From Gammaproteobacteria bacterium (GTDB taxonomy: Bacteria; Pseudomonadota; Gammaproteobacteria; Eutrophobiales; Eutrophobiaceae), in contig CBDBDW010000002.1 of NCBI GenBank assembly GCA_965204045.1, forward strand, positions 3,139,730 to 3,203,729: a DNA stretch of 64,000 nt, written 5' to 3'. Numbering within the stretch: the stretch's first letter is position 1; every line of letters begins with the position of its first letter. Under the pieces are notes generated by a model. That model saw nothing but the letters and a program-made list of their open reading frames with translations, was not told where the DNA came from and made no database searches. The translations under genes were made by a program, and so were the position numbers. Of the stretch, positions 31,933 through 47,137 are shown in pieces.

Positions 31933-33093
31933 CTATCCCGCGGAGGATATGACTTTCAGCGGCCCGATATCATCCCAACGGGTTTCCACCTCTTCAGCCA
32001 GAGTAAATCCTGGCAACATGTTCAGCACTTCATCGATAGCGATGCCGATCTCCGCACGCGCCAGGTTGGAACCCAGGCAACGATGGGGCCCGACACCGAA
32101 TGCGACATGACGGTTGGGGAAACGGTCGATATCAAACTTGTCCGGTTCATCGAACTCCTGCGGGTCCCGGTTGGCGCAGCCGAACAACATCACAGCAGGT
32201 TCACCCTTATGTACGGGACAGCCCTGGAATTCGATATCGTTCACCGCATGGCGGCCAAGCGCAATGACGGGGGAGAAGTAACGCAGCGCTTCCTCTACGG
32301 CCGGGTCGATTAAGGAACGATCTTCAATCAGGCGTTTTTGCAGGTTTTGATCGAGAGCCAGTTGCAGCAGTAATGCCCTGATGGTGAAGTTGGTATTGTC
32401 CAGACCGGCCACCAGCAGGAAGAAACAGAAATTGACTACGACTTCATCATCCAGGTGTTTTCCGTCGATCCTGGCATTCAGAACCAGGGAGACCAGGTCA
32501 TCGCCCGGGTGAGCCCGCCGTTCCGGCAATAACTCCGTAAACATCCGGTAAATATTTTCAGTGGCCTCATTGGCGGCCTGCGGGTCTGAAATCCGGCGGT
32601 AAACGGAATCTTCCACCCACTGCTGGAACTCGGCTTTGAATTCCAGACCAAGCATTCTGCAGATAACCACCGTAGGCAATAACTTGGCATAGCCGTAACT
32701 GAGGTCGTAGGGTTCACCGGAACTCATCAGGTCCTTCAGCAAATCACGGGAAGATTGGCGAATCGCCGGAAACCACTCCCTGATTGCTCTCGGAGAAAAT
32801 CGTCCGACCAGGATTTTTCGGTACTCGGTATGTAACGGGGGATCGGACTCCATCGGCAACATGGGCCGGTCGGTCATCGGAGGAAACATCGTACCCCGGG
32901 CCGGACTGAAATTCGCGGTATCGTGCGCCATGGCCTGCACCGCCTCATAGGTAGGCACCAGCCATAAACCGCCGTAGCGGGACGTCTTGCCTACCCCCTC
33001 CTCCCTCAGGTGTTTATAGTAAGCAACGGGATCGGCGCGAAATTCCGGTGAATTGTGATCAAAATCCGCATGAACTTTAGTCATCTTTCCCAC
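31933..33093 (-). CDS. Cytochrome P450
   Basis: Heme-binding loop FGVGPHRCLGSNLARAE; 386 aa. Confidence 0.9.
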   Translation of the reverse strand: MGKMTKVHADFDHNSPEFRADPVAYYKHLREEGVGKTSRYGGLWLVPTYEAVQAMAHDTANFSPARGTMFPPMTDRPMLPMESDPPLHTEYRKILVGRFSPRAIREWFPAIRQSSRDLLKDLMSSGEPYDLSYGYAKLLPTVVICRMLGLEFKAEFQQWVEDSVYRRISDPQAANEATENIYRMFTELLPERRAHPGDDLVSLVLNARIDGKHLDDEVVVNFCFFLLVAGLDNTNFTIRALLLQLALDQNLQKRLIEDRSLIDPAVEEALRYFSPVIALGRHAVNDIEFQGCPVHKGEPAVMLFGCANRDPQEFDEPDKFDIDRFPNRHVAFGVGPHRCLGSNLARAEIGIAIDEVLNMLPGFTLAEEVETRWDDIGPLKVISSAG

Positions 33094-33103
33094 CCCCTTC
33101 TAA

Positions 33104-34204
33104 TCACCAAAGCACGTAATCGCCGTCTCTCAGGACAGGGAGCCGGTCGCCGCCGGTTTTCACCAGGTCAACCGAGACGGTTACCGGGCATTCCTTTGCA
33201 TAGGGCAGGTCCCTGTGCAGGACCGTGTCCGGTGTTTTGAATGCCTCAGGTCCCACGGTGCCGCCAAGAAATTCGCTGCGCCCATAGCCCCAGTGAAAGC
33301 CGGCCTTTTCATCTTCGATAAACAGGCCTGTGACGCGGGCCGCGTAGTTGTACCCAAAGGCGATTTCGCCCACGTTACGGCGCGCGGGGTCCAAGTCGAG
33401 TTCCTCCCGTAGCGCATCCGCATGAGCGCCGTCGCCCAGCACGTCCGTAATCCGGTTTTCCTCAACGACAAAGCGCGCAATGTCATCATTACCACCAGCA
33501 ACGGGAATGATCCCCCGGGTGCGGGACTTCTCTCCCGGCCGTTCTCCCTCGTAGGGGACAATCCATACTTCACCGGATGGCAGGTTGATGAATGCGTCGC
33601 CTTCCTTGTCAGGATGGAGGTAACCGTTGTCCACATATGCCTGCCGGAAACGCAGGTCGAACAGGCAGGTATCACCCGTGGTGAACCTGACCTCCGCCGC
33701 CCGGGTGTCTTTCATTGCGTCCAGGATGACATTGCCGCGTTCTACCAGGTAACGGGTATCAGCCATCAGACAGGTGTCCTCCATGCTGCGGTTGGCCAGC
33801 GGCATGGACGCTACCCGGAATTGTTCTGCAGAGCCTTTATTTTGGCCGAACGCCATCAACGGACCTGTAATCGAGACTTCCGTCATGGAGATGACCACCG
33901 TAGCCTGATCGAGCACTTCGGTGAAGGGTTTTTTCTCCCCCGCAACCGAGGCATACGCCGGAAACTCGGCGTTCGCGTCCGCCACTGCCGGAAAGGAAAC
34001 AAGCGGCAACGCCTTGAAACCGTGTCTTTCACCCATTGCCGCGATTTGATCGCGCCAGTCGGCAGCCATTTCACGCCGTTCCTGCCAGGCCGGATTATCT
34101 TCGGACGCAGATGCGGGCAGATCTGCCAGGATCGCAAACACGTCACCAGGCCGCGGGCCGAACACTTCGGCCACCAGGCTCTCGAGGTTGAATTTCTTCG
34201 TCAT
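33104..34204 (-). CDS. Hypothetical protein (about 366 aa from MTKKFNLESL), possibly a metallopeptidase-like hydrolase
   Basis: Long ORF in operon; N-terminal 68 codons of the track ORF overlap the P450 terminator region and are unlikely coding. Confidence 0.55.
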   Translation of the reverse strand: MTKKFNLESLVAEVFGPRPGDVFAILADLPASASEDNPAWQERREMAADWRDQIAAMGERHGFKALPLVSFPAVADANAEFPAYASVAGEKKPFTEVLDQATVVISMTEVSITGPLMAFGQNKGSAEQFRVASMPLANRSMEDTCLMADTRYLVERGNVILDAMKDTRAAEVRFTTGDTCLFDLRFRQAYVDNGYLHPDKEGDAFINLPSGEVWIVPYEGERPGEKSRTRGIIPVAGGNDDIARFVVEENRITDVLGDGAHADALREELDLDPARRNVGEIAFGYNYAARVTGLFIEDEKAGFHWGYGRSEFLGGTVGPEAFKTPDTVLHRDLPYAKECPVTVSVDLVKTGGDRLPVLRDGDYVLW

Positions 34205-34968
34205 AACTTCCACACTTCCATGCAACGGTTTATCATCGCAACTACCTGGTCTGCGGCTTCGAGATGGACATAATGACCCGATGCAATGACCTGTCCGATG
34301 AGGGCCCCAGGTTGATGTGCAAGCAATACTTCGGGTTCGCTGTTGCGGCCTGCCCAGAAACCGGCTACCGGAACAGTGATGCGTGATAAGGCGTTCCCGC
34401 CATCCCACGCCAGCATGCCGGCGAAGGATTGCATCAAGGTATCCGGATCAATTTTTTCCATTATTTCGGCGCGCCCTGCAACGGCTGTTTTATCGTCATA
34501 CGGTCCCGACTGGGCGTCTATCAAAATATTCCTCGCTTCTTCATAGCCGTCTCCCCGCAGCATTTCCAGCAAGCCTTCCCAACCGCTGCGGGTATCCGGA
34601 TCGAGAACCACGGGCGCAGGATCCAGCAACATGACGGCCGCAACCTCGTCAGAATGCCGGGCGGCCATCTCCAACGCGACAAGGGCACCCATGCTGTGCC
34701 CGATCAATACGGGTTTTTCCAGGCCTGCAGCCTGGACAACCCTGCGAATTTCCCCGGCGCTGTTCCCGATGCTGATGGGCGATGCCGGCGCCGGGTTCTC
34801 TCCATGACCCGGCAGGTCGATGAGAAGCGTAGAACCGTTACTGATACGCCACCACTCAGCCAGGCCGGCCATGAATTGCCTGTGACCCAGTAATGCATGG
34901 AGGAACACCGCAGGCCGTCCCCCTGCCTCGATCAAGTCATGGGCCAGTAACTCAGACCGTGTCGGCAT
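34201..34968 (-). CDS. Alpha/beta-hydrolase fold protein
   Basis: GHSMG nucleophile elbow, HG oxyanion region. Confidence 0.75.
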   Translation of the reverse strand: MPTRSELLAHDLIEAGGRPAVFLHALLGHRQFMAGLAEWWRISNGSTLLIDLPGHGENPAPASPISIGNSAGEIRRVVQAAGLEKPVLIGHSMGALVALEMAARHSDEVAAVMLLDPAPVVLDPDTRSGWEGLLEMLRGDGYEEARNILIDAQSGPYDDKTAVAGRAEIMEKIDPDTLMQSFAGMLAWDGGNALSRITVPVAGFWAGRNSEPEVLLAHQPGALIGQVIASGHYVHLEAADQVVAMINRCMEVWKL

Positions 34969-36355
34969 ACCGCATCAACTCCCAGTCTGACACATCGTCC
35001 TCGGATGAATCCCCGACAGCTTCATTGTAGGCGTCCAGTTCCACGCGCCGGTTGTGGGCATAGAAGCGCACAAAATCCTCCCCCAGGTACGCGTTGGCAA
35101 TTTCACTCTGTTCAAAGACGTCAAGCGCTTCGGCCATGGTAGTCGGTACGCTTTGCAGGGACTCGTTCATATACCCGTCACCCACCACGGGAGCAGGCGG
35201 TTCGAGTTCGTTTTCTATCCCATAGGCCATACCCGCCAGGCACATGGCGATGGACAGGTAGGGATTTGCATCTGCGCCCCCGGTCCTCTGCTCAATCCGG
35301 CACGTGGATGGCGAGTCGACTACAGTACGCAGGGCAATCGACTTGTTGTCATGACCCCATCCTACCAGGTGCCCCGTGGAATAATGCGCAGCGAAGCGGC
35401 GGTATGAATTACGGGTCGGACAGCACATCAGGGTGAAATCCCGCAACGTGGCCAGTTCTCCGGCAACGGCCTGCTTGATGATCCTCGAGCGTTTGTCCGC
35501 CTTGGTTTCATCGTAAAATACGGGCCTGTCGTCCTGCCACAGGGAGTGGTTGATGTGGATGCCATTCCCGAAACCCTGCATGGTCGGTTTCGCCATGAAA
35601 TTGGGGAACAAATCCTGTTGTGACGCAATTTCCCGGATCGCGTGTTTGAACAGGAATGCCGTATCGGCTGCCGTTGTTGCGGGTTCCGGCGTCAGGTTGA
35701 ATTCCTGCATGCCGGGCCCGAATTCCGCCGACCAGACTTCAATGGGCATACCGAACTCCTGCAGGGCTTTGCGCACCGGCTGTACCAGCGGCGCATCACG
35801 GCCGCTGCGGGTTAGGCTGTAACACTGGGCGGTCGGCGACAAGGGCGTCATGTTGCGATAGCCTTTCCGGTATGCCGATTCCTCCGTCTCGCGAAACAAC
35901 AACCATTCCAGTTCCATCGAAAACATCGCCCTGAAGCCCAGTCCCACCAGGCGCTCTTCGAGTCGCCTGACCAGGGCGCGCGGCATGAACTCCAGGGGCC
36001 ATTTGTTTTCCGCGTGCTCATAATCACAGATAACCAGGGCGTTGGCATCCTGCCAGGGAACCAGGCGCACCGTTGCCGGATCCGGGACCAGGCGCAAATC
36101 GGTAAACCCTTCATCCCATGAAGGCCACCAGCCGCTGCCTCCCTCCGGTGGTGGAGAGGGCACGCCTGCGCAATCCATCATTATCATGAAACTGGAAATA
36201 TTTACCGTGGTCGCCGGGTCGGCAAGAAATCGCTTTGCAGGGATATGTTTGCCGCGCGCAATACCGTGGAGATCCGCTGCAACAAACGAGACTGAATCGA
36301 GTTCATGTCGTTCGATGAGATCCAGTATGGGCATGTAATTATTTGTCGAGTTCAC
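34952..36355 (-). CDS. Glutamine synthetase family protein (gamma-glutamyl-polyamine synthetase, PuuA-like)
   Basis: 467 aa GS catalytic-domain architecture. Confidence 0.8.
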   Translation of the reverse strand: MNSTNNYMPILDLIERHELDSVSFVAADLHGIARGKHIPAKRFLADPATTVNISSFMIMMDCAGVPSPPPEGGSGWWPSWDEGFTDLRLVPDPATVRLVPWQDANALVICDYEHAENKWPLEFMPRALVRRLEERLVGLGFRAMFSMELEWLLFRETEESAYRKGYRNMTPLSPTAQCYSLTRSGRDAPLVQPVRKALQEFGMPIEVWSAEFGPGMQEFNLTPEPATTAADTAFLFKHAIREIASQQDLFPNFMAKPTMQGFGNGIHINHSLWQDDRPVFYDETKADKRSRIIKQAVAGELATLRDFTLMCCPTRNSYRRFAAHYSTGHLVGWGHDNKSIALRTVVDSPSTCRIEQRTGGADANPYLSIAMCLAGMAYGIENELEPPAPVVGDGYMNESLQSVPTTMAEALDVFEQSEIANAYLGEDFVRFYAHNRRVELDAYNEAVGDSSEDDVSDWELMRYADTV

Positions 36356-36619
36356 AGTAATTACCCTTCAGCAGTTTTTCGTGAGGGATAAATACCGATA
36401 CCCGTCGGTATATTCCCCCGAGCAGCGAATACATATCATAGGATTAACATGACTGATTTGAAGTGTCCTAATAATACAATTTTTATAACAATTTAAAAAA
36501 ACGCCCATATAGAACCCTGCGGCAAATCAGGTTTACTGCGGTGACCGGCGCGGCGACTGGTTGAGTGGTAAACCACCCGGTGCTATGATTCATGTCCCTG
36601 TCAAGTTCCGTGAACAGCA

Positions 36620-38470
36620 GTGATAAATATCACCGGCAACAACGTTTATAAGTTCCCTCCGTTCCGGCTCAACCTGGCTGAAGCAACGCTGCACAGGGAC
36701 GCGGTTGAACTGCAGGTGCGGCCAAAAACTTTCTCGGTACTCTCAGTACTGGTTCAAAATCATAATAAACTGGTGACAAAAGACAACCTCATGCTGACCG
36801 TCTGGCCCGATGTCATCGTTGAAGATCAGGCATTGAAAAACTGCATAAGGGAACTGCGGCAAATTCTTGGAGACAACCCGCGCTCAGCCGAGTTTATCCA
36901 GACCGTGCACGGCCGGGGTTACAGGTTTATTGCACCCGTGTCCGGCGTCGACCTTGACCCTGCGGATAATTTGCAGAATGACGAGCCTGAACGGCAACAT
37001 ATACTTGTCGATCGGGATGAACCGCTGGCGCAGCTCAATGAATACCTGTCCCGGGCGCTGGCGGGAGAACGGCAATTGGTATTCATAAATGGTGAAGCCG
37101 GGATTGGGAAAAGTGCGCTTGCCGATACGTTCTTCAAACAGGTATTGCCCGATCGAGTGATGTTATCAGGCCAGGGGCAGTGCATAGAGCGACGCGGCAC
37201 GGTAGACGCCTTCATGCCTTTCATAGATGCGCTTGTCGATGCCTGTAAAACAGCCGGATTCGATGCTTTTTCACTCATTGAGCAGCATGCGCCTAACTGG
37301 TACCGGCGGTTGCCCGGCCAAAAAACACGAACCCGTTCAGGTATGACGGGTTCAGGGCTTGCATACAATGATAATGACGGGATGCTCCTGGAAATGGCGG
37401 AAGCACTGGAAACCATAACCAGGAATTATCCCGTCTTGATTTTGCTCGAAGATGTGCAATGGTGTGACAATGCGACCCTGGAATTACTGGCTTTTTTAGC
37501 CCGACGCCGCAACGCCGCCAAGTTCCTGGTGATTGCGACGTATCGAATAGAAGACGTGGTCGGCACGGAGCATCCACTGCCTGCGGTCAAGCAGGAGTTG
37601 CTGGTACACAAACGCTGCGCGGCGATTAATTTACCTCCCCTGACAATCAATGGAATTCACAGGTTTCTCCTCCGGCGCTTCACCCCGGTAGACTCCGCTT
37701 CACTCGATTTGCGCCGTCTGGCAGTAAAAATTCATGGTCGGACAGACGGTAATCCACTGTTCATGACGGAATTCCTCCAGCATTTGATTAACAAGAATTA
37801 TCTTGTCATGGAACAAGAAAACTGGCGCTTGAAATATGATCTGGATGTTGCGGTGAATGAAATTCCTGCAGACCTGAAATTGTTTATCGACGTGCTCGTA
37901 AACAGGCTGGATCCCCTGCCGCGTCACATCCTGGAGATCGCCAGCCTGGCCGGCCCGAAGTTTTCTGCGCGTTTGATTACCGGACTGGTCAATTCAGGCA
38001 TCTTTGAGATTGAGGAGATCTGCTCACAACTGGCAGAGCGTGAATTTATGCTGGCATTCGACAATGAGAAAATTCTGGAGGACGGCAGTTCGGTACAGCG
38101 CTTCCGCTTTATTCATAGCGTGCACCAGGAGACGCTCGCAAATAGAATGCCGGCGGCGCACCGGATTCGTACCTTGAGGGCCATAGCAGAACGCATAGAA
38201 AACCTGTATGCCAGTGACACATCGGAAGTCAATGCTGAGCTTGCGAGCCTCTTTGAACGGGGAAAGATGTATGACAAGGCCATACAATATTTTTTCATGA
38301 ATGCCTGCCAACTCAGCGACAGAGGGGCGGAGCGAGAAGCCCGGTCTCAATTTGCCAGGGGCAGTGAATTACTTAACCTGGTACGGGAGTTGAATGTTCA
38401 GCGGGGGTTGGTCGAAAGGCTTCGAACAACCCGGGAAAAATTGTATGGAAACAAGTCTGCTTTGGCTTGA
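36620..38470 (+). CDS. Transcriptional regulator: N-terminal OmpR/CadC-type winged helix plus AAA/NB-ARC-like ATPase domain; GTG start
   Basis: wHTH ...WPDVIVEDQALKNCIRELRQILGD...HGRGYRF; Walker A LVFINGEAGIGKSAL. Confidence 0.8.
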   Translation: MINITGNNVYKFPPFRLNLAEATLHRDAVELQVRPKTFSVLSVLVQNHNKLVTKDNLMLTVWPDVIVEDQALKNCIRELRQILGDNPRSAEFIQTVHGRGYRFIAPVSGVDLDPADNLQNDEPERQHILVDRDEPLAQLNEYLSRALAGERQLVFINGEAGIGKSALADTFFKQVLPDRVMLSGQGQCIERRGTVDAFMPFIDALVDACKTAGFDAFSLIEQHAPNWYRRLPGQKTRTRSGMTGSGLAYNDNDGMLLEMAEALETITRNYPVLILLEDVQWCDNATLELLAFLARRRNAAKFLVIATYRIEDVVGTEHPLPAVKQELLVHKRCAAINLPPLTINGIHRFLLRRFTPVDSASLDLRRLAVKIHGRTDGNPLFMTEFLQHLINKNYLVMEQENWRLKYDLDVAVNEIPADLKLFIDVLVNRLDPLPRHILEIASLAGPKFSARLITGLVNSGIFEIEEICSQLAEREFMLAFDNEKILEDGSSVQRFRFIHSVHQETLANRMPAAHRIRTLRAIAERIENLYASDTSEVNAELASLFERGKMYDKAIQYFFMNACQLSDRGAEREARSQFARGSELLNLVRELNVQRGLVERLRTTREKLYGNKSALA

Positions 38471-38500
38471 TAAAAACCTTTACGGTACGGCCACCGCGGT

Positions 38501-39256
38501 TTAAGCTGTATTGCAACATTTTGCGGCACTGGCCAGATCATCAAATAATTCTTGGTTGTCCATTGCCGGTAATTTTTCCGGGTGCCATTGCACTCCGATG
38601 ATATATTTTCCCGGGTCTTCAGCCTCTATCGCCTCAACAGTGCCGTCGGGCGCACGAGCGACCACTTTGAAACCTTGCGCAAGCCGGGCAAGGCCCTGGT
38701 GGTGCGTGGTGTTCACCCGCCGGGTTCCACAGCCCAAAATTGATGCCAGTCGCGATCCCGGTACGATTTCAACCGGGTGGCGCAGCGCCAGGATATCATC
38801 AAGCAGCGTCGGCCGGGGACCGTGGTCGGCCCTTCCTTCCTGCGTGATTTTCTGATTGAGCGTGCCACCGAATGCAACGTTTATCAGTTGCATGCCCCGG
38901 CAGGTGCCCAATACCGGGATTCCACGTTCAACTGCGGCATTTAACAGCGCTATTTCCCTGCGGTCTGCGTCAGGGTCAACATTCCGGCAAGTGCCTTTAT
39001 CACTGTCTCCATAGCAGGCAGGATCTATATCATCGCCCCCGGTGAGCAATAACGCATCGATTCTGGAAACCACATTTCCCTCTGTGCCCGGCCTGACGTG
39101 CGGCAGCATCATCGGAATGGCTTCGGCTGCATGGATTCGATCTACATAAGCCTCATCGATCTGAAATATATTCATACGACTGCCCCACACCTCAACATCC
39201 TGGCGCCAGGCTGCGATGCCGATTACCGGCAGGGTTGACTTCGATCGCGAATTCAT
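38501..39256 (-). CDS. Class-I glutamine amidotransferase-like peptidase C26 (gamma-glutamyl-GABA hydrolase, PuuD-like); start at MNSRSKSTLPVIGI
   Basis: GTCRGMQLINVAFGG Cys nucleophile, HHQG..., GVQWHPE. Confidence 0.8.
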   Translation of the reverse strand: MNSRSKSTLPVIGIAAWRQDVEVWGSRMNIFQIDEAYVDRIHAAEAIPMMLPHVRPGTEGNVVSRIDALLLTGGDDIDPACYGDSDKGTCRNVDPDADRREIALLNAAVERGIPVLGTCRGMQLINVAFGGTLNQKITQEGRADHGPRPTLLDDILALRHPVEIVPGSRLASILGCGTRRVNTTHHQGLARLAQGFKVVARAPDGTVEAIEAEDPGKYIIGVQWHPEKLPAMDNQELFDDLASAAKCCNTA

Positions 39257-39311
39257 TACTCCGAAAACAATGCAGCTTATACCAATACTGTTATTCCGGA
39301 GGAGCCAGCTT

Positions 39312-41318
39312 TCACAGCAAGCCGATTGCCTGTCGCGCAGCGCGCTGCCCCTCCGCCATTCCTCCCACGAAGGCTTGCAGGCCGCGCAGTTCGGCATGCG
39401 CGAAAAAGATCCGCCCATAACCCTCGCGCAACGTATCAGTTGCCGAACGGCTGTTATCCGCCGGATAGAAAAAACCGGGTTTTGGAACTGAATAGGCATG
39501 ACCCCATCGGTTAACGGTGATGGCCGCTATGTCGCGTTGTGGTTCGAATCCTCCTTTATCAAATAACACATGCATCTGTTTGATAACACGGTGCTCAATA
39601 TCCATATATGGCGTTGCCAGCAATTGTTGTCGCAATTCAAGGCCCTGTTGCCTGGCCGGCAAGGAACTGTCGATCAATGGCGCGTAAAATGTCAGGACTA
39701 TGGGTTTATCCGGGTGAAAGGGCGCCTTGTAGTCACCTACAACAAGCGGTTGCCGGATATTACAATAAAAACCGAATTTTCCGCCAAAGTACAGAACTGA
39801 CGTCAAGCCCATACGCTCCATAAAACGCCAGTTGGTTAACGCTACATTCACTACGACTACCGGTGAATGATCGAATTTATCCAATGCCGTTGCCACTGCG
39901 GGCGGCGCGTCGCCCAGAATATGCCTGCTGACCCAGGCGCCGGCGCAAACTATAGCCGTTTTCGAAATGACCTGGTGTAATTCGCCGTTTTTCTCATACA
40001 CGATCCGCACCCTGCTGCCGTTACTGCCCTTCAGGTGCCGCACGTCTATTACAGTGGCCGCCAGGTGCATACGCATATTGTTGTCTCGATTTTCCAATTC
40101 ATCAAAACGTATTTTGCCTCCCATCATGGAAGCAGGCTTGTTCTCGCCTTCAAACAGGCCAGGCCAGACATAATTCATCAGGTACCTGTATACATAGGTG
40201 TTCCCGCCGGGGAAACAACCCACATTGAAATCACGCATGAACGTGGTCAGGTGTTTGGCAGATACCGACGCCTTGTATTCACCCGACTCCGGGGTCTCGG
40301 CCGCCCCTGGCATCATCAGCAATTTCGTCGCCACATAGGCCGAACAGGTGGCAGACCCAAAACCGAGAGCGCTGGCGAGCAGAGGATCGCAAAAACGGGC
40401 AACGGCAGGTGACAGCCCATGGACATCCACCAGCAATTCTTCGTAAGACATCCGGTCCAGCCACCGATCCATGTCTTCCCTGTCATGGTTAAAGGAAAGA
40501 CTCCAGTTATAACGGAGAAAATCGTTCCGGGTTTTTTTATCATAGCCGAGCCCCTGCATCCCGTTCATAAAAGGGTTTCTGACAGGCTCGGGTTGGGGAT
40601 TATCATCCGTCGGGGCCGGGAAATAACCGATACTGTCAGAAACGGTCGCCCACAACGTAAATGCGTAATTCGTAACATCGAACTCCAGCGGTTTATCGGT
40701 CCCTTCCAGTTCAACCCAATCATAGGAAAGCGGCATTCCGATATCGTTAAACTCATCGAACATGAGGTCGTCACCGATTGCCGTCTGCCCCGAATAACGG
40801 GGCAGGATGACCAGATTTGAACCCTGTGGTCCGAAAACCCGGCGCCCATTTACGTTAAATTCGTTGTGTTTTGCCTCGCCGCCGAAAATCCTGTGATTCT
40901 CAAGGATCAGCATCCTTGTTTCTGGTGCGTCTTTCTTTATGCGATATGCCGCCCCCATGCTGGTCGCGCCGCCACCAATAATGACGACGTCATAATCATC
41001 ATCGGATGTATGGGCGTTATTGAACGCAGATTCGTCAAACTGGTTTTCCGCAATTGCGTGGGCACGGGCTACAACATCCCAGGTGTTACCATTTTTTCCC
41101 TGATAATCGCCGATACCACTGGGGCCGTCATAGGTTAAATTCACCGGAGCGGCGGCAGAATATTGAGCTGCCCTGGCCTGTAATAATTGTACCGGCGTTA
41201 ACCCACCCAGTAACGCTGTTCCGGCGCCAAGCAGACTCCCTCCAAGAAAATCACGACGCGTAATCTGCATACAAGGCAGATGGTTCTGTTGAATTACTGA
41301 TTGTCGTTTTCTGTTCAC
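39312..41318 (-). CDS. TAT-secreted FAD-dependent amine oxidoreductase (spermidine-dehydrogenase SpdH-like)
   Basis: Twin-arginine signal MQITRRDFLGGSLLGAGTALL; DVVIIGGGATSMGAAYR FAD motif. Confidence 0.75.
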   Translation of the reverse strand: MNRKRQSVIQQNHLPCMQITRRDFLGGSLLGAGTALLGGLTPVQLLQARAAQYSAAAPVNLTYDGPSGIGDYQGKNGNTWDVVARAHAIAENQFDESAFNNAHTSDDDYDVVIIGGGATSMGAAYRIKKDAPETRMLILENHRIFGGEAKHNEFNVNGRRVFGPQGSNLVILPRYSGQTAIGDDLMFDEFNDIGMPLSYDWVELEGTDKPLEFDVTNYAFTLWATVSDSIGYFPAPTDDNPQPEPVRNPFMNGMQGLGYDKKTRNDFLRYNWSLSFNHDREDMDRWLDRMSYEELLVDVHGLSPAVARFCDPLLASALGFGSATCSAYVATKLLMMPGAAETPESGEYKASVSAKHLTTFMRDFNVGCFPGGNTYVYRYLMNYVWPGLFEGENKPASMMGGKIRFDELENRDNNMRMHLAATVIDVRHLKGSNGSRVRIVYEKNGELHQVISKTAIVCAGAWVSRHILGDAPPAVATALDKFDHSPVVVVNVALTNWRFMERMGLTSVLYFGGKFGFYCNIRQPLVVGDYKAPFHPDKPIVLTFYAPLIDSSLPARQQGLELRQQLLATPYMDIEHRVIKQMHVLFDKGGFEPQRDIAAITVNRWGHAYSVPKPGFFYPADNSRSATDTLREGYGRIFFAHAELRGLQAFVGGMAEGQRAARQAIGLL

Positions 41319-41628
41319 GGTGTTCTCTTCAACGGGCGAATACTACTTATCATCATTAAAATATCACTGTCAGAAAATACAAAATTCATACAATTTGCCG
41401 AGTCGCAACAGGCATGAAACCAGCGCAAGGACATCGCGGATTTCGTTACCCGGAAGAGTTGGCAGTATCTGCTGGGAATGACATGGAAAATATTTTGTAC
41501 CATTTTTGTACTTTTCGGATTCTTCAGGTGATTTATTTTTTTATATCGTAAAGCAGTAACAATCCCAGGGGCAGACAAGGTGTGATTATTTGTACTGCAC
41601 ACTGGAATTTCCATACGGGGATGGTGAT

Positions 41629-44103
41629 ATGAAGAACTTAACCTTGACCAGGCAACTAGGTGTATTGATCTCTGTTTTCAGCATTTCTGCTGTGCCTGTG
41701 AATGCTCAAATACTTGAAGAAATTGTTGTAACCGCTGAAAAACGGGAAGAAAAACTATCTGACGTCAGTATTTCTGTTACCGCGTTTACAGGAGAGCAGT
41801 TAAAACGGCTTGGTTACAAAACTACGCGGGAGCTGAACGGGCAGATTCCAAACCTGACAATTACCGATTTCGGAGGCGTACCCCAGACTGTGCTGGTAAC
41901 CATCCGCGGATTGACACAGGACGATTTTCTCAACCACCAGGAGTCGCCGAATTCAGTCTTTTACGATAACGCCTATAACAGTTTTCTCGGCGGTATCGGA
42001 AACCAGTTATTTGATATTGACCGCGTAGAAGTTTTACGCGGACCGCAAGGGACCCTGTTCGGAAGAAATGCAACGGGGGGACTCATCCACATTCTCACCG
42101 CAAAGCCTACGGATGAGTTCGAAGGTTATGGTGAAATAACCGCAGGTTCATATGAGATGGTCCGGTTTGAAGGAGCAATCAGCGGGCCGCTATCCGACGA
42201 ACTTTCCGGGCGGCTTTCAATTGCAACGGAGCATAACGGCGGATTTGTAGAAAACCGGGCCGACACATTGAGTGACGGTACAGTGGCCAGCGATGGCAAG
42301 GATGGCGGTAATATGGAGAACTACAGCCTGCGGTCCAGACTCTTATGGTCTCCCGGAGACGACACCGAGGTATTGATAACAGGAAGGTACTCCAGGGACG
42401 ATGACGTCAGGGCTGCAGTATATGACATTGATGCCGCCCTCAATCTTGGCGCATTCGATCCATCCATTGGCGGACCTAATGTAAATCTTCCGAATGTCGG
42501 TTCATATCCACTCAGCCAATCCGATTTCAATTCATACTGTTTAAATGTCTTCGCTGTTTCCGCTGCCGACAGTGAGGATAATTGTACCGGCAATGATGAT
42601 GACGATGATTTTGCCGGTTCTTTCAGTGACAGTTTTTTCAATCGGGAGAGTTACGGAATTACACTTGATATCAATCACTCAACGGGGGATATACAGATAA
42701 CATCCATTACTGATTTCAAGACTATTGAGCAGGATTACCGGGAGGACAGTGATGGGGTCTCCCGTACCGGGCCGGCGCTGGAAGCTGCCAGGCAGGCCTC
42801 GATTGACGGCACTCTCTTCGGTGTTCCAACCCTGCCCCCGGGGGCACCGATAGAAACTGTCATAGTGGCGGATTTTATCGGATCTGCAGATACGGATCAG
42901 TTCTCACAGGAGTTGCGTATTTCAGGTGAAAACGCTTCCCTGCAATGGCAAACAGGCGCTTATTTGCTGTACATCGATGGTGACTACACAAGCGGCTACG
43001 CTTCATTGGAAACATTCGGCGCAGCGAACGAAAATTTCTATAGTCTCGAAACGCTGAGTTATGCATTTTTTGTCGAAGCACAGTATTTTCTGACGCAGGA
43101 GGTAACTTTTATCGGAGGTGTTCGCTGGACCAGGGACGAAAAGGAATTCTCATTTATCGGTACGTGCACGAATAATACGACCGGCACTTACACATTTGAT
43201 TTTTTTGGATTGGCAGACCCCTGCGTGGATTTCGGTTTTGTCGTACCTGGAGCAGGTTTCATTCAGGACATCGGTTTCACAAAGGAAACCGCAGGTGATC
43301 TGACTGAATTGAATGACGATGCATTTTCATTTAAAGCGCAAATTGAATGGCAGCCGAATGATGACTTGTTGTTTTATGGGGGTGTGACCCGCGCAAATAA
43401 AGCTGGAAATTTCAACGCGGGTATCGCAAACAATATCGTTCCGGCCGTAGTCCCGTTTCAGCAGGAGATTCTTACTTCCTATGAGGCCGGTGTTAAAACG
43501 ACCTTGCTGAACGGAACCGTCAGGTTAAGTGCTGCAGGATTTTACTACGATTATGAAGATTACCAGGCAGCAACCTTCACGCCCGATTTTGTAAACCTGA
43601 TTTCGAATGTTGAGGCGGATGTAGTCGGTGGGGAGGTGGAAATATACGCCCAACCATTTGAAAACACGACTTTTGTGTTCGGCGCCTCATACCTCGATGC
43701 AGAAGCGGACGGTGTGCCAATTCCATTCGGTTCGGGTGAACTGGTTCCTCTCAAACAGGATATGCCGCAAGCGCCGAAATGGTCCGCAAACGGCCTGCTA
43801 CGTCAGGATTGGCCGACGACCTTCGGCAACCTGTTCACACAGATAGACTTCAACTACATAGACGAAAGGGCTACAAGTACTGCAAATTCGCCAATTGCAA
43901 CCCTTGAAAGTTATGTGTTAGCCAATCTTCGCGTAGGTATGAGCACAGCTGATGATAAATGGACTGCTACATTTTTTATTAACAACCTGACTGATACCAC
44001 CGCGATACAGAAGGCGTTTGATCTTTCATTATTTGGAGGATATCGACAACTGGTTAATGGTACGCCTCGTTGGTATGGAGGCACAATCAGGTATCAATTC
44101 TGA
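41629..44103 (+). CDS. TonB-dependent outer membrane receptor; start MKNLTL
   Basis: Plug motifs EEIVVTAEKREEKLSDVSISVTAF, VEVLRGPQGTLFGRNATGGLI; C-terminal ...RYQF. Confidence 0.85.
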   Translation: MKNLTLTRQLGVLISVFSISAVPVNAQILEEIVVTAEKREEKLSDVSISVTAFTGEQLKRLGYKTTRELNGQIPNLTITDFGGVPQTVLVTIRGLTQDDFLNHQESPNSVFYDNAYNSFLGGIGNQLFDIDRVEVLRGPQGTLFGRNATGGLIHILTAKPTDEFEGYGEITAGSYEMVRFEGAISGPLSDELSGRLSIATEHNGGFVENRADTLSDGTVASDGKDGGNMENYSLRSRLLWSPGDDTEVLITGRYSRDDDVRAAVYDIDAALNLGAFDPSIGGPNVNLPNVGSYPLSQSDFNSYCLNVFAVSAADSEDNCTGNDDDDDFAGSFSDSFFNRESYGITLDINHSTGDIQITSITDFKTIEQDYREDSDGVSRTGPALEAARQASIDGTLFGVPTLPPGAPIETVIVADFIGSADTDQFSQELRISGENASLQWQTGAYLLYIDGDYTSGYASLETFGAANENFYSLETLSYAFFVEAQYFLTQEVTFIGGVRWTRDEKEFSFIGTCTNNTTGTYTFDFFGLADPCVDFGFVVPGAGFIQDIGFTKETAGDLTELNDDAFSFKAQIEWQPNDDLLFYGGVTRANKAGNFNAGIANNIVPAVVPFQQEILTSYEAGVKTTLLNGTVRLSAAGFYYDYEDYQAATFTPDFVNLISNVEADVVGGEVEIYAQPFENTTFVFGASYLDAEADGVPIPFGSGELVPLKQDMPQAPKWSANGLLRQDWPTTFGNLFTQIDFNYIDERATSTANSPIATLESYVLANLRVGMSTADDKWTATFFINNLTDTTAIQKAFDLSLFGGYRQLVNGTPRWYGGTIRYQF

Positions 44104-44175
44104 CAATAGCATTCTGGTCAGGCAATAAAAGTAACGTAACGATTGACCTCCGTCACTACGTTACGAACAGCGCTG

Positions 44176-44300
44176 GAAAGAATGCCGATGGCCGGATTCG
44201 AAAGAATAATATAACTTGTTGTTTTTATTGTATAATAATGTTGTGCGTGGTGTCTATTGCAACATTTTTCCTAACATTATTTTGGGGCTGTATTCATGAC
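44176..44300. repeat. Repeat copy R2; carries tRNA-Leu 3'-end-like segment (minus-strand reading TTCGAATCCGGCCATCGGCATTC)
   Basis: gaatgccgatggccggattcgaa + conserved aatataacttgttg...ttttggggctgtattcatga. Confidence 0.7.
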
Positions 44301-44320
44301 GGTCCCTGTTGGCGTTGGTT

Positions 44321-44893
44321 TCAGGTGTCGTCCGGGAGTGTCTGCGTCCAACTGTTGCGTACAGTATCAATGCTGATGAACATTCTTAATGGGCGCGTCG
44401 GCAGCGACTGAAACCCCATGGCAAGATAAAATGCCCGGCGTTTTTCTGTAATATCGGGACCACCGTCCTCAATCACGTCGAGCACCACGGCCTTCAGTCC
44501 GATTTGATCGGCAGCGCCCACCGCGCGCTTTAATGCGTTTCCGAGCAGGATACTTCCTATGCCTTGCCCCTGGTGGCGACGGTCTACGGCGATCATTGAG
44601 AGGTAGGCTGTCGGGATACTTCCGGACCGGGGAGCGTGTTTCGTCAGGCTGGGCGGGAGACCCTCTCCTTCCAGCGAGTGCGCGTTCAGCGCGTAATAAC
44701 CCAGAATTTCATCTCGCCCGCCCTCAGTAGCAACCCAGACCCGTGTAAAGTCCCCCGACTGCTGTTTCCTGGCGCTACGTTTGAGAAAGTTGTCGAGCCG
44801 GACGGTCCCGCATGAGAAAGACGCCCTGTCGTGTTTCTCCGGGTCAAGCGGTGTGATGGATATCCGCCGTGGGTTCAACCCGGCTTCAGTCAC
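44321..44893 (-). CDS. GNAT-family acetyltransferase toxin (TacT-like); probable GTG start overlapping antitoxin stop
   Basis: ...ITPLDPEKHDRASFSCGTVRLDNFLKRSA..., acetyl-CoA motif RRHQGQGIGSILL. Confidence 0.7.
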   Translation of the reverse strand: MTEAGLNPRRISITPLDPEKHDRASFSCGTVRLDNFLKRSARKQQSGDFTRVWVATEGGRDEILGYYALNAHSLEGEGLPPSLTKHAPRSGSIPTAYLSMIAVDRRHQGQGIGSILLGNALKRAVGAADQIGLKAVVLDVIEDGGPDITEKRRAFYLAMGFQSLPTRPLRMFISIDTVRNSWTQTLPDDT

Positions 44894-45197
44894 CCTGCGC
44901 CACTCGGGCGTCGTGCATAGCCATAACTTTCCGCAGTGCGTCGGTCGGCGGCGCCGGCGTTTCCAGGGCAGCCAGAACCACCTCACGGTCTGCGGCAGAC
45001 AGGATCGTACGTTCATGGTCTGCAATCGTTGCCTGTGCCCGCTCAAGCGCCACGCTTGTCACGAAAGTTGTCTCATCGATACCGAGCAGGGCCGCCGCTC
45101 GCTGTATCTGCGCCTTGACGTGCGGTTTGGTTCGTTGTTCCATCCGCGCCGTTTTCGGTTCATCAATAGCGGCCGCATAATCGTCGAAATTCAGCAT
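44886..45197 (-). CDS. DUF1778-family (TacA-like, RHH) antitoxin
   Basis: 103 aa; ...KAQIQRAAALLGIDETTFVTSVALERA... Confidence 0.75.
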   Translation of the reverse strand: MLNFDDYAAAIDEPKTARMEQRTKPHVKAQIQRAAALLGIDETTFVTSVALERAQATIADHERTILSAADREVVLAALETPAPPTDALRKVMAMHDARVAQGD

Positions 45198-45301
45198 GGT
45201 CGTATCTCCATTATTTTTTGTTATTGTACGGTAATTTGCCGGACAATCAACTAATTCCTAAACGGCTAGTGGTTCAGGTTACGGGGAGAGGGTCAAGGGG
45301 G

Positions 45302-45805
45302 TCAACGTGCCTGAAGAAGTGTTTCGATACGTTGAACGGGAAGCATCAGGGTCATAGGGTCAATATGCGACACCCGGAACCCGTATCTCAGGTAAAAACG
45401 CCTGGCATCTTCTGAAATGGCGTGTACCAGCACCGCCCGGACGCCTGCATTCCGTGCAACAGCCAGTGTGCGTAACAAGGCATCTTTCAGCAGGGCAGCG
45501 CCCAGGCCTTGACCCTGCGTTGCACGTTCAACGGCCAAACGACCCAATACCATGACGGGAACGGCTTCCGGCATATTGCGGGCTATCGCCGCAGGAGCGC
45601 TGATTCGCTCGACACTCCCGCTGGCAAGAGCATAGAACCCGACTACCCGCTTACCCTCGCTGATAACAAAAGTTCTGCTGGCGCCACTGTCCTGATTTTT
45701 CAGCGCATGCTTTTTAAGCCACTCATTGAGCGCTTCATTACCACAGTCAAACTCCACCAGCAGATGACTGTCAGTCAGAGGCTCCGGGGCTTTGGCTACT
45801 CCCAT
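45302..45805 (-). CDS. GNAT-family acetyltransferase toxin (TacT-like), second paralog
   Basis: LLVEFDCGNEALNEWLKKHA N-terminus, QGQGLGAALL acetyl-CoA motif. Confidence 0.8.
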   Translation of the reverse strand: MGVAKAPEPLTDSHLLVEFDCGNEALNEWLKKHALKNQDSGASRTFVISEGKRVVGFYALASGSVERISAPAAIARNMPEAVPVMVLGRLAVERATQGQGLGAALLKDALLRTLAVARNAGVRAVLVHAISEDARRFYLRYGFRVSHIDPMTLMLPVQRIETLLQAR

Positions 45806-46059
45806 GGAGAAGGAGAAGTCAACAGGGATTTCAGCTTCTCGTTAGCAGGCGCCGGCGCTTCCAGGGCTGCGGTAAAGGCAGCAAAAGTATCATCGTCAAG
45901 TTGAAAAAGACGTTGATTGAGCAACACGTGTTCCGCTTCCCGACAGGCAACGTCCAGGATAAAAGCGCTTCTGTCCTTGTTAAGCATCGCAGCAGCTTTG
46001 GTCAACAGCGCACGCTGACCAGGTTCAACGCGCATGTTAATAGGGGCAGTTTTGGACAT
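45796..46059 (-). CDS. DUF1778-family antitoxin, second paralog; start at MSKTAPINMRVEPG
   Basis: INMRVEPGQRALLTKAAAMLNKDRSAFILDVA. Confidence 0.75.
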   Translation of the reverse strand: MSKTAPINMRVEPGQRALLTKAAAMLNKDRSAFILDVACREAEHVLLNQRLFQLDDDTFAAFTAALEAPAPANEKLKSLLTSPSPWE

Positions 46060-46164
46060 AATGATAAATCTCTTTGAATATCTTGATGCGATACATTCTA
46101 GTATAGCTATCAGATACACGCAAATGTTCCGCTCTCAGCAGAGAAATTGGAACTGCAAAAACGG

Positions 46165-46285
46165 ATAAATGGTGCCGATGGCCGGAATAGAAACTGTAAT
46201 GTAACTCGTTGTTTTTATTAAAATATAATGTAGGGCATGTTGTCTATTCCAACATTTTTTCCAACATTATTTTGTGTCCCCAAAA
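46165..46285. repeat. Repeat copy R3 (minus-strand reading ...TTCCGGCCATCGGCACCA; distal end partly inverted relative to other copies)
   Basis: ggtgccgatggccggaataga + taactcgttgtttttatt..atgttgtctattccaacattttttccaacattattttgtgtcccc. Confidence 0.65.
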
Positions 46286-46311
46286 CTATGCAATTACAGG
46301 GCCGCGGGTCA

Positions 46312-47137
46312 CTATGAAATACTTAAGTCGAAGCCGGCTGAGATTGTGTACCATGTACCTTTCCCTTTCCCGTGTTTCGTTAAATGACCATTTTTTACTA
46401 AAGAAGCAATGTGCTCTTTAATCGTCCCCCGGGCGGCACTGGTTGACTTTATGATGTCATCCATTTTGATTTGACCCCGCTCACGTGCAAGTTCCACATA
46501 ATCTACCGTTACCATCCTGAAACGGGTGGATTTGTAACAAGACAACGATAAATACCGCAATAATCAACAGGGGATGAAAAGACCGTTCTTGTAGCGCTTT
46601 ATTCGTCCACTCCTCCAACTCAGTCATCAAACGTGGTGTATCAAAAGGTGATGCCGTAGCAAAAACAACCCCGAGGCTTTTCCCGCTTTCATCAAAAGCC
46701 TCAACATGATTATCAATTTTTTTGTAGTGTCCACGATGTCTTTCGTCTTTTCCTGAATATTGAAGTAAATCACGATGCAGTTGTTTGATGTGATTTTCTG
46801 TCAGTGTGATTGCCGACCACGATGAGAAAATTGTCTCCATGACTTCTGCGTAGCCTGCCACTTCTTCTTCATCGCGTGATTGGAAGGACTTGTTCGGTAG
46901 TTCAATTAACAAGGCTTGAACCTGATTATCCGATAATTGACTTCCTTCTATCCTGGTTGAGGAACCAATGCTTTCGATTGTTGCCACACGACGTAAGGCG
47001 GATAGCCGCTCGGGGGTAAGGGTTGCCAACGCATGCCACGCCCCTTTGAACTCATCCAGTTCTGCAATAATATCGAGTATTTCCGGGGTGATATGAAGGG
47101 TATGTGTTTTAATTGTTTCAGCCATAAATCCAACCAT
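46312..47137 (-). pseudogene. fic: Decayed fic (Fido-domain) gene: Fic domain ORF ends 5 codons after the HPFQDGNGR motif and the C-terminal wHTH continues in another frame
   Basis: HPFQDGNGRLCGTCT* in one frame; overlapping ORF MRYLSLSCYK...LARERGQIKMDDIIKSTSAARGTIKEHIASLVKNGHL (wHTH); about 80 aa missing between motif and wHTH. Confidence 0.65.

Follow-up and report, generated by a model that had tools for sequence, protein, structure and literature searches.

What a block of about 13 kb in a marine gammaproteobacterium does, and for which compound, is the question raised by a locus in which a relative of spermidine dehydrogenase (SpdH) lies beside gamma-glutamylation genes, a TonB-dependent receptor (TBDR) and a regulator. 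The original prediction placed a polyamine-catabolism cluster at 34952-44103 of the window, the 64-kb stretch of DNA analysed here, and took it for a merger of both known polyamine degradation routes. All five of its genes are present, several with corrected starts: a glutamine synthetase (GS)-family gene, a C26 hydrolase, the SpdH homologue, the TonB receptor and a wHTH-AAA regulator. The right end of the span stands, and the left end was set too short, because the operon headed by the GS-like gene runs down to 30999. The block as delimited here spans 30999-44103 and has counterparts in related bacteria. We lean, with modest confidence, towards a substrate-inducible catabolic locus for an amine compound with a cleavable secondary-amine bond, either polyamine-type or N-alkyl.

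The block behaves as a mobile unit. It is bracketed by copies of a direct-repeat family of about 95-160 bp, neither assigned to a strand, at 30831-30990 on the left and 44183-44299 on the right, and the left copy is 92% identical to 44208-44299 in a self-BLAST. Synteny with close strains stops at 31033 and breaks again at the right repeat, and the segment 31033-44299 (13.3 kb) has been relocated as a single piece in strains of 98-99% identity. The surroundings contain many repeats and IS elements and are rearranged between strains. The two halves of the block differ in G+C (0.57 versus 0.50), which suggests that they were joined recently.

Six genes on the reverse strand form a tightly packed operon with overlapping start and stop codons, in the order GS-like ligase, α/β-hydrolase, M29-fold protein, P450, ferredoxin and Ntn-amidotransferase-like hydrolase. 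The first (34952-36355; Gln-synt_C E 1e-81) encodes a putative ATP-dependent gamma-glutamyl-amine ligase of the GS family, in which metal, ATP and glutamate residues are kept, and D50, Y179 and E327, which in established GS literature form the ammonia site, are replaced or deleted. On its sequence the protein is best classed as an IpuC-like ligase and not as a true glutamine synthetase. The P450, apparently of class I type, is encoded at 31933-33093 (reverse strand; alternative ATG 33084; Pfam p450 E 6e-31), and its best PDB match, P450cin, reaches merely 197 bits. Among 1552 plasmid records its top matches are ipu-cluster P450s, and the plasmid genes that best match the P450 and the GS-like gene lie next to each other, in pairs, within ipu clusters. 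The small ferredoxin of 65 residues (31723-31920, reverse strand; Pfam Fer4_15 E 2.9e-15) probably serves the P450 as redox partner, and its orthologues come after the P450 in related loci L003, L082, L083, L087, L088 and L089.

These matches identify ipu, a catabolic set, as the closest characterised gene set. The Ipu systems of Pseudomonas sp. KIE171 (ipuABCDEFGHI) and Paenarthrobacter aurescens TC1 (pTC1/pTC2), whose step order and IpuF hydrolase role we take from PMC6776027, have in common with the block a GS-like ligase, a class-I P450, a small ferredoxin and a class-I amidotransferase-type hydrolase. In a comparison with the ipu-annotated pTC1 cluster, which rests on annotated homologues in strain TC1, identities were 32.5% for the ligase (IpuC, 244 bits), 39.3% for the P450 (252 bits), 47.6% for the ferredoxin and 38% for the C26 hydrolase (AAur_pTC10065). 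Scores against E. coli Puu proteins are lower, with PuuA 27.8% identical to the ligase (139 bits) and PuuD 32.6% identical to the C26 hydrolase. The NCBIfam equivalog models tell the same story: the ligase reaches 205.9 bits with the PuuA model NF045547, whose cutoff is 650, and the C26 hydrolase 110.8 bits with the PuuD model NF008471, whose cutoff is 266, so that with both proteins nearer their ipu-cluster counterparts the PuuA and PuuD identities were rejected. Because these four proteins match pTC1, and the ligase and hydrolase do so with scores above those for PuuA and PuuD, the gamma-glutamyl branch looks Ipu-type rather than Puu-type.

The general logic of ATP-dependent gamma-glutamylation, oxidation and C26-type hydrolysis regaining glutamate is also that of E. 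coli Puu and P. aeruginosa Pau, but oxidation in the Puu route uses the flavoprotein PuuB and the aldehyde dehydrogenase PuuC where the block has a P450 and a ferredoxin. In tblastn searches of the 64-kb window PuuC had no match, and the sole PuuB match (6132-7244, 27% identity) lies about 24 kb from the block; PuuP and PuuR are absent. The block departs from Ipu as well, in that it lacks a ferredoxin reductase, a permease and an alcohol or aldehyde dehydrogenase, and adds the M29-fold protein, the α/β-hydrolase and the Ntn-type hydrolase, together with a periplasmic front end (TBDR and SpdH-family dehydrogenase) and the wHTH-AAA regulator. The ferredoxin reductase of pTC1 has no tblastn match anywhere in the 64-kb window. 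A 'glutamine synthetase' gene also neighbours P450 and ferredoxin genes in clusters of the amine degraders Mycobacterium (pipA/morA) and Gulosibacter (PMC9477822). By gene content these clusters resemble the block, but they are actinobacterial and cytoplasmic only, and are without an SpdH-type enzyme, a TBDR or an M29-fold gene.

The most distinctive operon member is a protein of 366 residues encoded at 33104-34204 (reverse strand), a conserved part of the core module whose start codon overlaps the preceding stop (ATGA). It matches Peptidase_M29 (PF02073) only weakly (E 2e-4, 20.7 bits, under the gathering cutoff of 27), and even a 16-sequence profile found no sequence match in the PDB. Its AF2 model (pLDDT 89.5) nevertheless retrieved AmpT (E 6e-14), PepS and AmpS (about 1e-12) with Foldseek, along with the crocagin biosynthetic protein CgnE, which has an M29 fold; the best TM-score, 0.67-0.70, was to the Fe-dioxygenase NicX. 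The model thus assigns the protein an M29 fold, and we class it as metalloenzyme-like. Residues E212, E280, H304, H330 and D332 are invariant, and their spacing resembles that of the Glu, Glu, His, His and Asp ligands of dinuclear-metal M29 enzymes. The gene is absent from the plasmid collection, the pTC1 and pTC2 ipu plasmids included.

The operon also encodes two hydrolases. The α/β-fold hydrolase (34201-34968, reverse strand, 255 residues; Pfam Abhydrolase_1 E 2e-17) carries a GHSMG motif, overlaps the end of the GS-like gene by 17 nt and has orthologues of 52-68% identity in loci L003, L085, L088 and L091. The last operon gene (30999-31721, reverse strand), whose ATG overlaps the ferredoxin stop codon (TGATATG), encodes a stand-alone class-II (Ntn) amidotransferase-like protein of 240 residues that begins 'MC' and is a putative gamma-glutamyl-amide hydrolase. 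Its Pfam matches to GATase_6 (E 3.5e-4) and GATase_4 (E 0.01) both fall under the gathering cutoff, and a four-homologue profile matches PurF at E 3e-3; C2, R78/R79, N105-G106 and D127 are invariant, and orthologues of 58-68% identity hold the same operon slot in L082, L083, L087 and L088.

The SpdH homologue provides the periplasmic side of the locus. Its listed reading frame (39312-41318, reverse strand) most likely starts at 41270, at 'MQITRRDFLGG', which yields a protein of 652 residues from M17 at 39312-41270. The proposal of a Tat-secreted SpdH-type enzyme was borne out: the Tat signal scores 19.5 with TIGR01409 (cutoff 16.7), phmmer aligns the protein to P. aeruginosa SpdH (PaSpdH; PA3713; PDB 7D9F-J) in two stretches at E 5e-40, and the ten top Foldseek matches are all PaSpdH (E about 1e-31, TM 0.71-0.73), with the next fold class at 1e-15. 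NAD_binding_8 and DAO matches at residues 110-160 mark the FAD dinucleotide-binding motif near the N-terminus, and an FAD-binding fold is shared with PaSpdH. The counterparts of the PaSpdH heme-b axial ligands His54 and His562 (PMC12564564) are H87 and H607 ('RWGHAY'), and all 14 subfamily members compared have both histidines. Membership in the SpdH family thus rests on sequence, fold, heme histidines and Tat signal. With both histidines kept, the protein is probably a flavocytochrome dehydrogenase, and the earlier label of oxidase is probably wrong. Differences from PaSpdH are also considerable: identity is about 20-21% over the Foldseek alignment, the central ~190 residues (174-360) are unaligned by phmmer, Y443 (mutated in 7D9J) corresponds to V489, a position where the subfamily has V, A or I, and D282 could not be mapped. 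Given this central divergence and the replacement of Y443 by Val, spermidine or putrescine is unproven as the substrate.

Directly downstream, 55 nt away on the same strand, lies the gene for a putative C26-type (class-I amidotransferase-like) gamma-glutamyl-amide hydrolase of 251 residues (38501-39256; Peptidase_C26 E 3e-62). As listed (38501-39499), the frame runs into the upstream gene; translation likely begins at the ATG at 39256. No signal peptide was found in it, and its sequence is that expected of an amidotransferase-type hydrolase in the IpuF role.

Divergent from the SpdH-like gene is a TBDR gene (41629-44103, forward strand; listed from 41590, likely start 41629) with N-terminus MKNLTLTRQLGVLISVFSISAVPVNAQ. 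A plug domain (PF07715, E 2e-13), a barrel domain (PF00593, E 1e-30) and a signal peptide mark it as one of the TonB-dependent outer-membrane receptors, a class with a 22-strand barrel; its best subfamily model is a siderophore receptor, under that model's cutoff. The anticipated combination of winged helix and ATPase in one regulator was likewise found, at 36620-38470 (forward strand), where an OmpR/CadC-type winged helix (Trans_reg_C E 9e-18) precedes an AAA_16 (STAND-like) NTPase domain (E 4e-20) and a helical C-terminus. This gene is divergent from the GS operon, and its orthologues adjoin GS operons in L006 (91% identity), L083 (54%), L088 (48%), L015 (38%) and L091 (29%). Divergent units, a TBDR with periplasmic enzymes, cytoplasmic catabolism and a dedicated regulator are features in common with PUL-like TBDR-linked loci, from which the block differs in its cargo, apparently an amine or amide compound and not a glycan, and in having no SusD-like partner.

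Whether these parts belong together was addressed by comparing the window proteins by tblastn with 78 genomic loci holding SpdH homologues, 15 of them with a homologue at least 48% identical and 63 with homologues of 33-41%. Among the close loci the M29-like and P450 genes occur in 13 of 15, the GS-like gene in 12 and the C26 gene in 10, whereas the GS-like, M29-like and C26 genes were found in none of the 63 distant loci. Ten of the 15 close loci have a TBDR within 10 kb, versus seven of the 63 distant ones. An eleventh copy of the C26 gene in the close loci is truncated where the Pseudomaricurvus locus ends. Among cultured strains, Pseudomaricurvus alkylphenolicus KCTC 32386 has the module. 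The linkage recurs across two lineages of the module, with the genes arranged in several ways, and the amine module always contains the M29-fold gene. The co-occurrence of SpdH homologue and module is therefore beyond chance, and the proposed physical association of an SpdH-family enzyme with a gamma-glutamylation module, a TonB receptor and a wHTH-AAA regulator is a recurrent one, a conserved context that distinguishes the window gene from PaSpdH. Coupling is frequent and not obligatory, since the closest relatives of the GS operon, the type-A operons of L082, L083 and L087 (GS 66-71% identical), show no SpdH homologue in the flanking sequence retrieved, and L001, L002/L013 and L016 have a close SpdH homologue without the module. 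Further periplasmic partners in related loci include signal-peptide amidohydrolases, a gamma-glutamyltranspeptidase and TBDRs.

Gene content, homologies, the conservation of catalytic and cofactor residues, the linkage and the relocation of the block as a unit are observed; we infer the catabolic direction, the nature of the substrate and the following order of steps. The TBDR would import the compound into the periplasm, where the Tat-exported flavocytochrome would oxidise a C-N bond and pass electrons from FAD through heme b, the final acceptor presumably being periplasmic; the imine would hydrolyse to an aldehyde and a primary amine. The amine would then enter the cytoplasm, a step for which the block holds no inner-membrane transporter gene, and be joined to glutamate by the GS-like ligase at the expense of ATP. 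The resulting gamma-glutamyl amide may be hydroxylated by the P450 with its ferredoxin, and glutamate and the oxidised product could be freed by either or both of the C26 and Ntn-type hydrolases, with the M29-fold protein and the α/β-hydrolase performing additional steps. Pathway-specific regulation likely falls to the wHTH-AAA_16 protein; a shared operator or other regulatory signal was looked for and not found.

The merger of two classical polyamine routes, in which SpdH would cut spermidine or spermine and a Puu/Pau-type branch would take putrescine or diaminopropane, draws its appeal from the fact that the only characterised relatives of the SpdH-like enzyme are spermidine/spermine dehydrogenases, and that Pseudomonas is known to gamma-glutamylate the diamine that SpdH releases. 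The GS-like and C26 proteins do share superfamilies with PuuA and PuuD, and the corresponding equivalogs are their best NCBIfam models, but at 206 of the 650 bits and 111 of the 266 bits set as cutoffs, with no PuuB or PuuC homologue in the block and a P450, ferredoxin and constant M29-fold gene in their stead, the Puu branch is unsupported. Free polyamines are small enough to do without a TonB receptor, and several SpdH paralogues in the same genomes imply diversified substrates. The enzyme itself has a divergent centre, with Val for Tyr. We consider such a merger unlikely. On another, doubtful reading, the block would serve the TonB-dependent use of polyamine-type compounds too large, or conjugated, to pass porins, candidate cargo being long-chain or acylated polyamines from hosts, sponges or algae; the SpdH-type flavocytochrome would cleave the backbone and feed the respiratory chain, and alkylamine fragments would enter an Ipu-like gamma-glutamyl/P450 route that includes a new M29-fold catalytic step.

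It is also conceivable, though we think it improbable, that a TBDR/SpdH-like/C26 unit and an Ipu-like alkylamine operon under a regulator of its own are unrelated neighbours juxtaposed by island shuffling, with no common pathway. The SpdH-less type-A operons, the SpdH homologues that stand without the module, the unequal G+C of the halves and the rearranged, repeat- and IS-rich region would all fit. Yet the linkage persists across gene orders and lineages, strains of 98-99% identity move the entire block and not its halves, and the C26 gene, last in type-A operons, here, in the window lineage, follows immediately after the SpdH-like gene in the same orientation. More remote still is a biosynthetic or salvage locus, in which gamma-glutamyl would be a protecting group in the tailoring of an amine metabolite such as a metallophore, which would be taken back up through the TBDR. 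Gamma-glutamyl protection with Ntn-type deprotection does occur in some biosyntheses, the M29 fold of CgnE and the siderophore-receptor model of the TBDR point the same way, but no NRPS, PKS, NIS synthetase or exporter is encoded in or beside the block, the gene set is hydrolase-rich and its closest characterised relative is catabolic, and a periplasmic C-N-cleaving dehydrogenase, with the periplasmic amidohydrolases and transpeptidase of related loci, suits degradation better.

Should the catabolic reading be true, gamma-glutamyl/P450 amine catabolism, so far known from soil isopropylamine degraders, would reach marine bacteria and extend to substrates that need active transport across the outer membrane and periplasmic C-N cleavage, and a role would be assigned to an M29-fold family that is widespread (>1000 homologues) and currently unannotated. 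To our knowledge, the characterised members of the SpdH family are the spermidine enzymes of Pseudomonas and Serratia only. The locus provides one subfamily with a defined, conserved genetic context, and hence a testable pathway, and SpdH homologues with known substrates are wanted as direct-electron-transfer biosensor enzymes (PMC12564564). A single scan confirmed 330 SpdH-family loci, and the proteins are multi-copy in marine Gammaproteobacteria, Gemmatimonadota and Acidobacteriota.

The pairing of an SpdH-family enzyme with a gamma-glutamyl branch at this locus is real, and the gamma-glutamyl half is not the Puu pathway. All five genes named in the original prediction were recovered by domain and homology matches. 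They encode a GS-family protein (34952-36355, minus strand; Gln-synt_C, E 1e-81), a regulator (36620-38470, plus strand; Trans_reg_C, E 9e-18; AAA_16, E 4e-20) that sits between the two minus-strand units, a C26 hydrolase (ORF 38501-39499, minus strand; Peptidase_C26, E 3e-62), an SpdH-like protein (39312-41318, minus strand; match to P. aeruginosa SpdH, PaSpdH, E 5e-40) and a TonB-dependent receptor (TBDR; 41590-44103, plus strand, likely start 41629) with plug and barrel domains, whose gene and the SpdH-like gene are transcribed in divergent directions. The SpdH-like protein probably starts at the ATG at 41270 with the N-terminus MQITRRDFLGG, and the C26 gene follows 55 nt downstream on the same strand; C26 itself probably begins at the ATG at 39256 and has 251 aa, since the longer reading frame runs into the upstream gene. 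The unit exceeds the predicted span of 34952-44103, as the GS gene heads a tightly packed six-gene minus-strand operon that continues with an alpha/beta hydrolase (34201-34968; 17 nt shared with GS), an M29-like protein (33104-34204, its start overlapping the upstream stop as ATGA), a cytochrome P450 (31933-33093), a 65-aa ferredoxin (31723-31920; Fer4_15, E 3e-15) and a 240-aa Ntn protein beginning MC (30999-31721, its start overlapping the ferredoxin stop as TGATATG). Genes for an inner-membrane transporter, a ferredoxin reductase and an aldehyde dehydrogenase are missing from this block of 30999-44103. An Rfam search of 30000-48000 (E <= 1) returned no match, promoter and terminator scans did not rise above shuffled-sequence level, and a search for an operator shared by the two divergent intergenic regions (36356-36619 and 41271-41628) found none.

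Assignment of the gamma-glutamyl branch depends on comparison with two reference systems: puuPADRCBE of E. coli, and the genes annotated as ipu on plasmid pTC1 of Paenarthrobacter aurescens TC1. The best NCBIfam matches of the GS-family and C26 proteins are the PuuA and PuuD equivalogs, both far under their cutoffs (206 vs 650 and 111 vs 266). The GS-family protein is 32.5% identical to pTC1 IpuC (244 bits) vs 27.8% to E. coli PuuA (139 bits), and C26 is 38% identical to AAur_pTC10065 of pTC1 vs 32.6% to E. coli PuuD. The P450 (39.3%, 252 bits) and ferredoxin (47.6%) match their counterparts in the pTC1 ipu cluster and have none in E. coli Puu. Of the 1552 plasmid records that match the P450, those holding P450s of ipu-type clusters match best, and in these records the P450 adjoins the best-matching GS-like gene. 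The one PuuB match in the window is distant and lies 24 kb away; neither PuuC nor the ipu ferredoxin reductase has a match anywhere in the 64 kb. Alignment with E. coli GlnA revealed that the metal, ATP and glutamate residues are kept, while the ammonia-site residues of GlnA are altered: Asp50 has become Pro, Glu327 has become Ser, and the segment with Tyr179 is missing. The same ammonia-site pattern occurs in IpuC and PuuA. In the Ipu route the ligase acts first, followed by P450 hydroxylation of the gamma-glutamyl amide and amidotransferase-type hydrolysis (PMC6776027). We therefore class the branch, by gene content and closest homology, as Ipu-type and as falling outside the Puu pathway. 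Of the proposed merger of both classical polyamine degradation routes, the pairing is upheld by recurrent linkage in other genomes, and the Puu branch is not, given equivalog scores under cutoff and the closer resemblance to pTC1 ipu proteins.

The periplasmic half of the block is anchored by the SpdH-like protein, whose N-terminus passes a Tat-signal model (19.5 vs a cutoff of 16.7) and for which an exact-sequence look-up returned no record. In an AlphaFold model built from a 14-sequence alignment (pLDDT 73), the ten best PDB matches are all PaSpdH structures (E ~1e-31, TM 0.71-0.73), and the next fold matches, to monoamine, L-amino-acid and putrescine oxidases, reach only ~1e-15. In PaSpdH, heme b is held by His54 and His562 and the FAD electrons go to the heme (PMC12564564). 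These histidines align to H87 and H607 in the window protein, positions that do not vary in 14/14 close homologues. Because both are conserved, the protein is best described, from its sequence, as a Tat-exported flavocytochrome dehydrogenase and not as an O2-dependent oxidase; the prediction had called it an oxidase. Spermidine cannot be assumed as its substrate, since the phmmer alignment with PaSpdH is confined to residues 17-173 and 361-644, since PaSpdH Tyr443, the residue mutated by the depositors of 7D9J, is Val489 here and varies among V, A and I in the subfamily, and since up to three SpdH paralogues occur in single genomes.

Two operon members extend the gamma-glutamyl half. The M29-like protein scores 20.7 bits against Pfam M29 (cutoff 27), and PDB sequence searches with the single sequence or a profile gave no match. 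Its model, predicted with confidence (pLDDT 89.5), shows the M29 fold in a fold search (AmpT, E 6e-14; also PepS and AmpS), with the best TM-score, 0.67-0.70, to the Fe(II) dioxygenase NicX, and five acidic or histidine residues are invariant. The gene is absent from plasmid ipu clusters. Its identification as IpuE was considered and rejected, as a plasmid collection that includes pTC1 and pTC2 holds one archaeal aminopeptidase and no other homologue. The Ntn protein has weak class-II amidotransferase matches, and its Cys2, Arg78/79, Asn105-Gly106 and Asp127 are invariant, a set which we take to correspond to the glutamyl-moiety binders of PurF-type Ntn amidotransferases.

A profile scan in which each GTDB species was represented by one genome yielded 78 loci with SpdH homologues, against which all window proteins were run by tblastn. 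The M29-like and P450 genes are present in 13/15 loci whose SpdH homologue is at least 48% identical, with GS also in 12/15 and C26 in 10/15, an eleventh C26 copy being cut by the end of the Pseudomaricurvus locus; GS, M29-like and C26 partners were found by tblastn in 0/63 loci with homologues of 33-41% identity. Two metagenome contigs (L090, L091) supply further examples of the linkage, and a metagenome scan with the M29-like profile gave 8 loci, too few for statistics. A TBDR lies within 10 kb in 10/15 close vs 7/63 distant loci, a comparison to be read with caution as the TBDR queries were drawn from the close loci. Gene order varies by lineage: some loci are compact, with SpdH forward, GS reversed, M29-like and P450 forward and C26 reversed, Pseudomaricurvus alkylphenolicus (cultured strain KCTC 32386, scaffold JAAQPI010000030.1) has C26 and GS reversed followed by forward M29-like, P450, ferredoxin, TBDR, two amidohydrolases and SpdH, and other orders occur too. 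These differing orders indicate that the linkage is maintained and not merely inherited. Recurrent extras in related loci are gamma-glutamyltranspeptidase, TBDRs and signal-peptide periplasmic amidohydrolases of the Cc2672/prolidase/molinate-hydrolase class.

Coupling between the two halves is not obligatory. One form of the module, type A, is a collinear operon of GS, (alpha/beta hydrolase), M29-like, P450, ferredoxin, Ntn and C26, to which the window GS, M29-like, P450 and Ntn proteins are closest (58-71% identity), and which often carries the window's type of regulator (48-54% identity). No SpdH homologue was present in the fetched flanks of the type-A operons at three loci (L082, L083, L087). 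In type B, the module genes are 43-52% identical to those of the window, and every example fetched has an SpdH homologue close by. The lineage of the window (loci L004-L006) joins type-A genes to an SpdH-like-C26 unit. The type-A operon of L082 (contig of ERZ25069412, ~7087-14821; GS-M29-P450-Ntn-C26, no SpdH homologue) is flanked by genes for a double Ectoine_synth-domain protein, a DAO flavoprotein, an FMO-like monooxygenase and a RedAm-like imine reductase, a hint of cyclic-imine or amine chemistry around the module.

The components of the block are of known kinds, namely the SpdH family, Ipu-type gamma-glutamyl/P450 catabolism and TBDR-linked catabolic loci. Literature searches found no published description of an SpdH, GS, P450 and TBDR system, and none of a conserved M29-fold member of such a module; what appears new is the combination of these parts together with that member. 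As a whole, we propose a mechanism in which the receptor would import an amine or amide compound and the periplasmic flavocytochrome would oxidise a secondary-amine C-N bond to an aldehyde and a primary amine. In the cytoplasm, the primary amine would be trapped as a gamma-glutamyl amide, hydroxylated by the P450 and ferredoxin, and de-glutamylated by the C26 and Ntn hydrolases, with the M29-fold protein and alpha/beta hydrolase possibly performing further steps and the wHTH-AAA_16 protein plausibly controlling the two divergent promoter regions.

Comparison between strains also shows the block to act as a unit. At 99.2% identity, the window is a rearranged relative of MAG chromosome OZ244846.1; segment 31033-44299 is collinear there and its flanks are not, and a 98%-identity strain has a third arrangement. 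A direct repeat of ~95-160 bp occurs in four copies (83-92% identical), of which 30831-30990 and 44183-44299 bracket the block and 46173-46274 and 47234-47405 separate GNAT and Fic cassettes. Each copy holds TGGTGCCGATGGCCGGATTCGAA, the reverse complement of a tRNA-like 3' end (T-loop, acceptor strand, CCA); ARAGORN found no tRNA in the window and Rfam gave no match. G+C content differs between the GS operon (0.57) and the regulator-to-receptor half (0.50), which would fit a relatively recent joining of these halves. Between repeat copies lie GNAT acetyltransferase ORFs (44321-45046 and 45302-45805), which may be toxin-antitoxin-type cassettes, and a Fic-domain ORF (46481-47137) with an apparently truncated C-terminus. 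In loci L004 and L005, from strains of 98-99% identity, the cassettes stand in another order, as if recombining at the repeats.

Genes beside the block at 24267-30505 encode a secreted CBM9-like protein, an FmdA/AmdA-type formamidase/acetamidase, an acyl-CoA ligase, an ApbA-type reductase and a BBE-type FAD oxidase; we excluded them from the unit, as their adjacency is lost even in strains of 98-99% identity. An 83%-identical formamidase recurs near the block in L006, on the receptor side. A second TonB-receptor-linked cluster (2973-11787, minus strand) holds three amidohydrolases (2973-4316, 4270-5952, 7924-9348), a DAO-family flavoprotein with 27% identity to PuuB of E. coli (6018-7334), a DUF3830 protein (7347-7874) and a TBDR (9382-11787), followed by an rve-type integrase gene (11887-13134). 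Orthology of this cluster to the periplasmic amidohydrolases of related loci was rejected at only 23-33% identity. In two other gammaproteobacterial MAGs (L060, L066), an SpdH paralogue that shares 36% identity with the window enzyme lies directly upstream of 88-92% orthologues of the window class-III aminotransferase (17363-18748) and MFS transporter (15984-17309). The corresponding window site carries three transposase genes (DDE_Tnp_1, 18852-19895; IS110, 20254-21327; ISAZ013, 23017-24243), with no paralogue remnant detected there. Intergenic elements of ~80-100 bp at 7833-7925, 17245-17342 and 20087-20171 match their own reverse complements at 83-86%, two of the three being mutually related (81%), and look like REP or MITE-type palindromic repeats. 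Finally, a plus-strand cluster of lower G+C (0.45-0.49) at 47580-53184 encodes an IclR regulator, an enoyl-CoA hydratase, a family-III CoA-transferase, a MeaB GTPase and a methylmalonyl-CoA-mutase-family large subunit (49114-50727) followed by a small ORF (50699-51148), which suggests a B12-dependent acyl-CoA mutase pathway.
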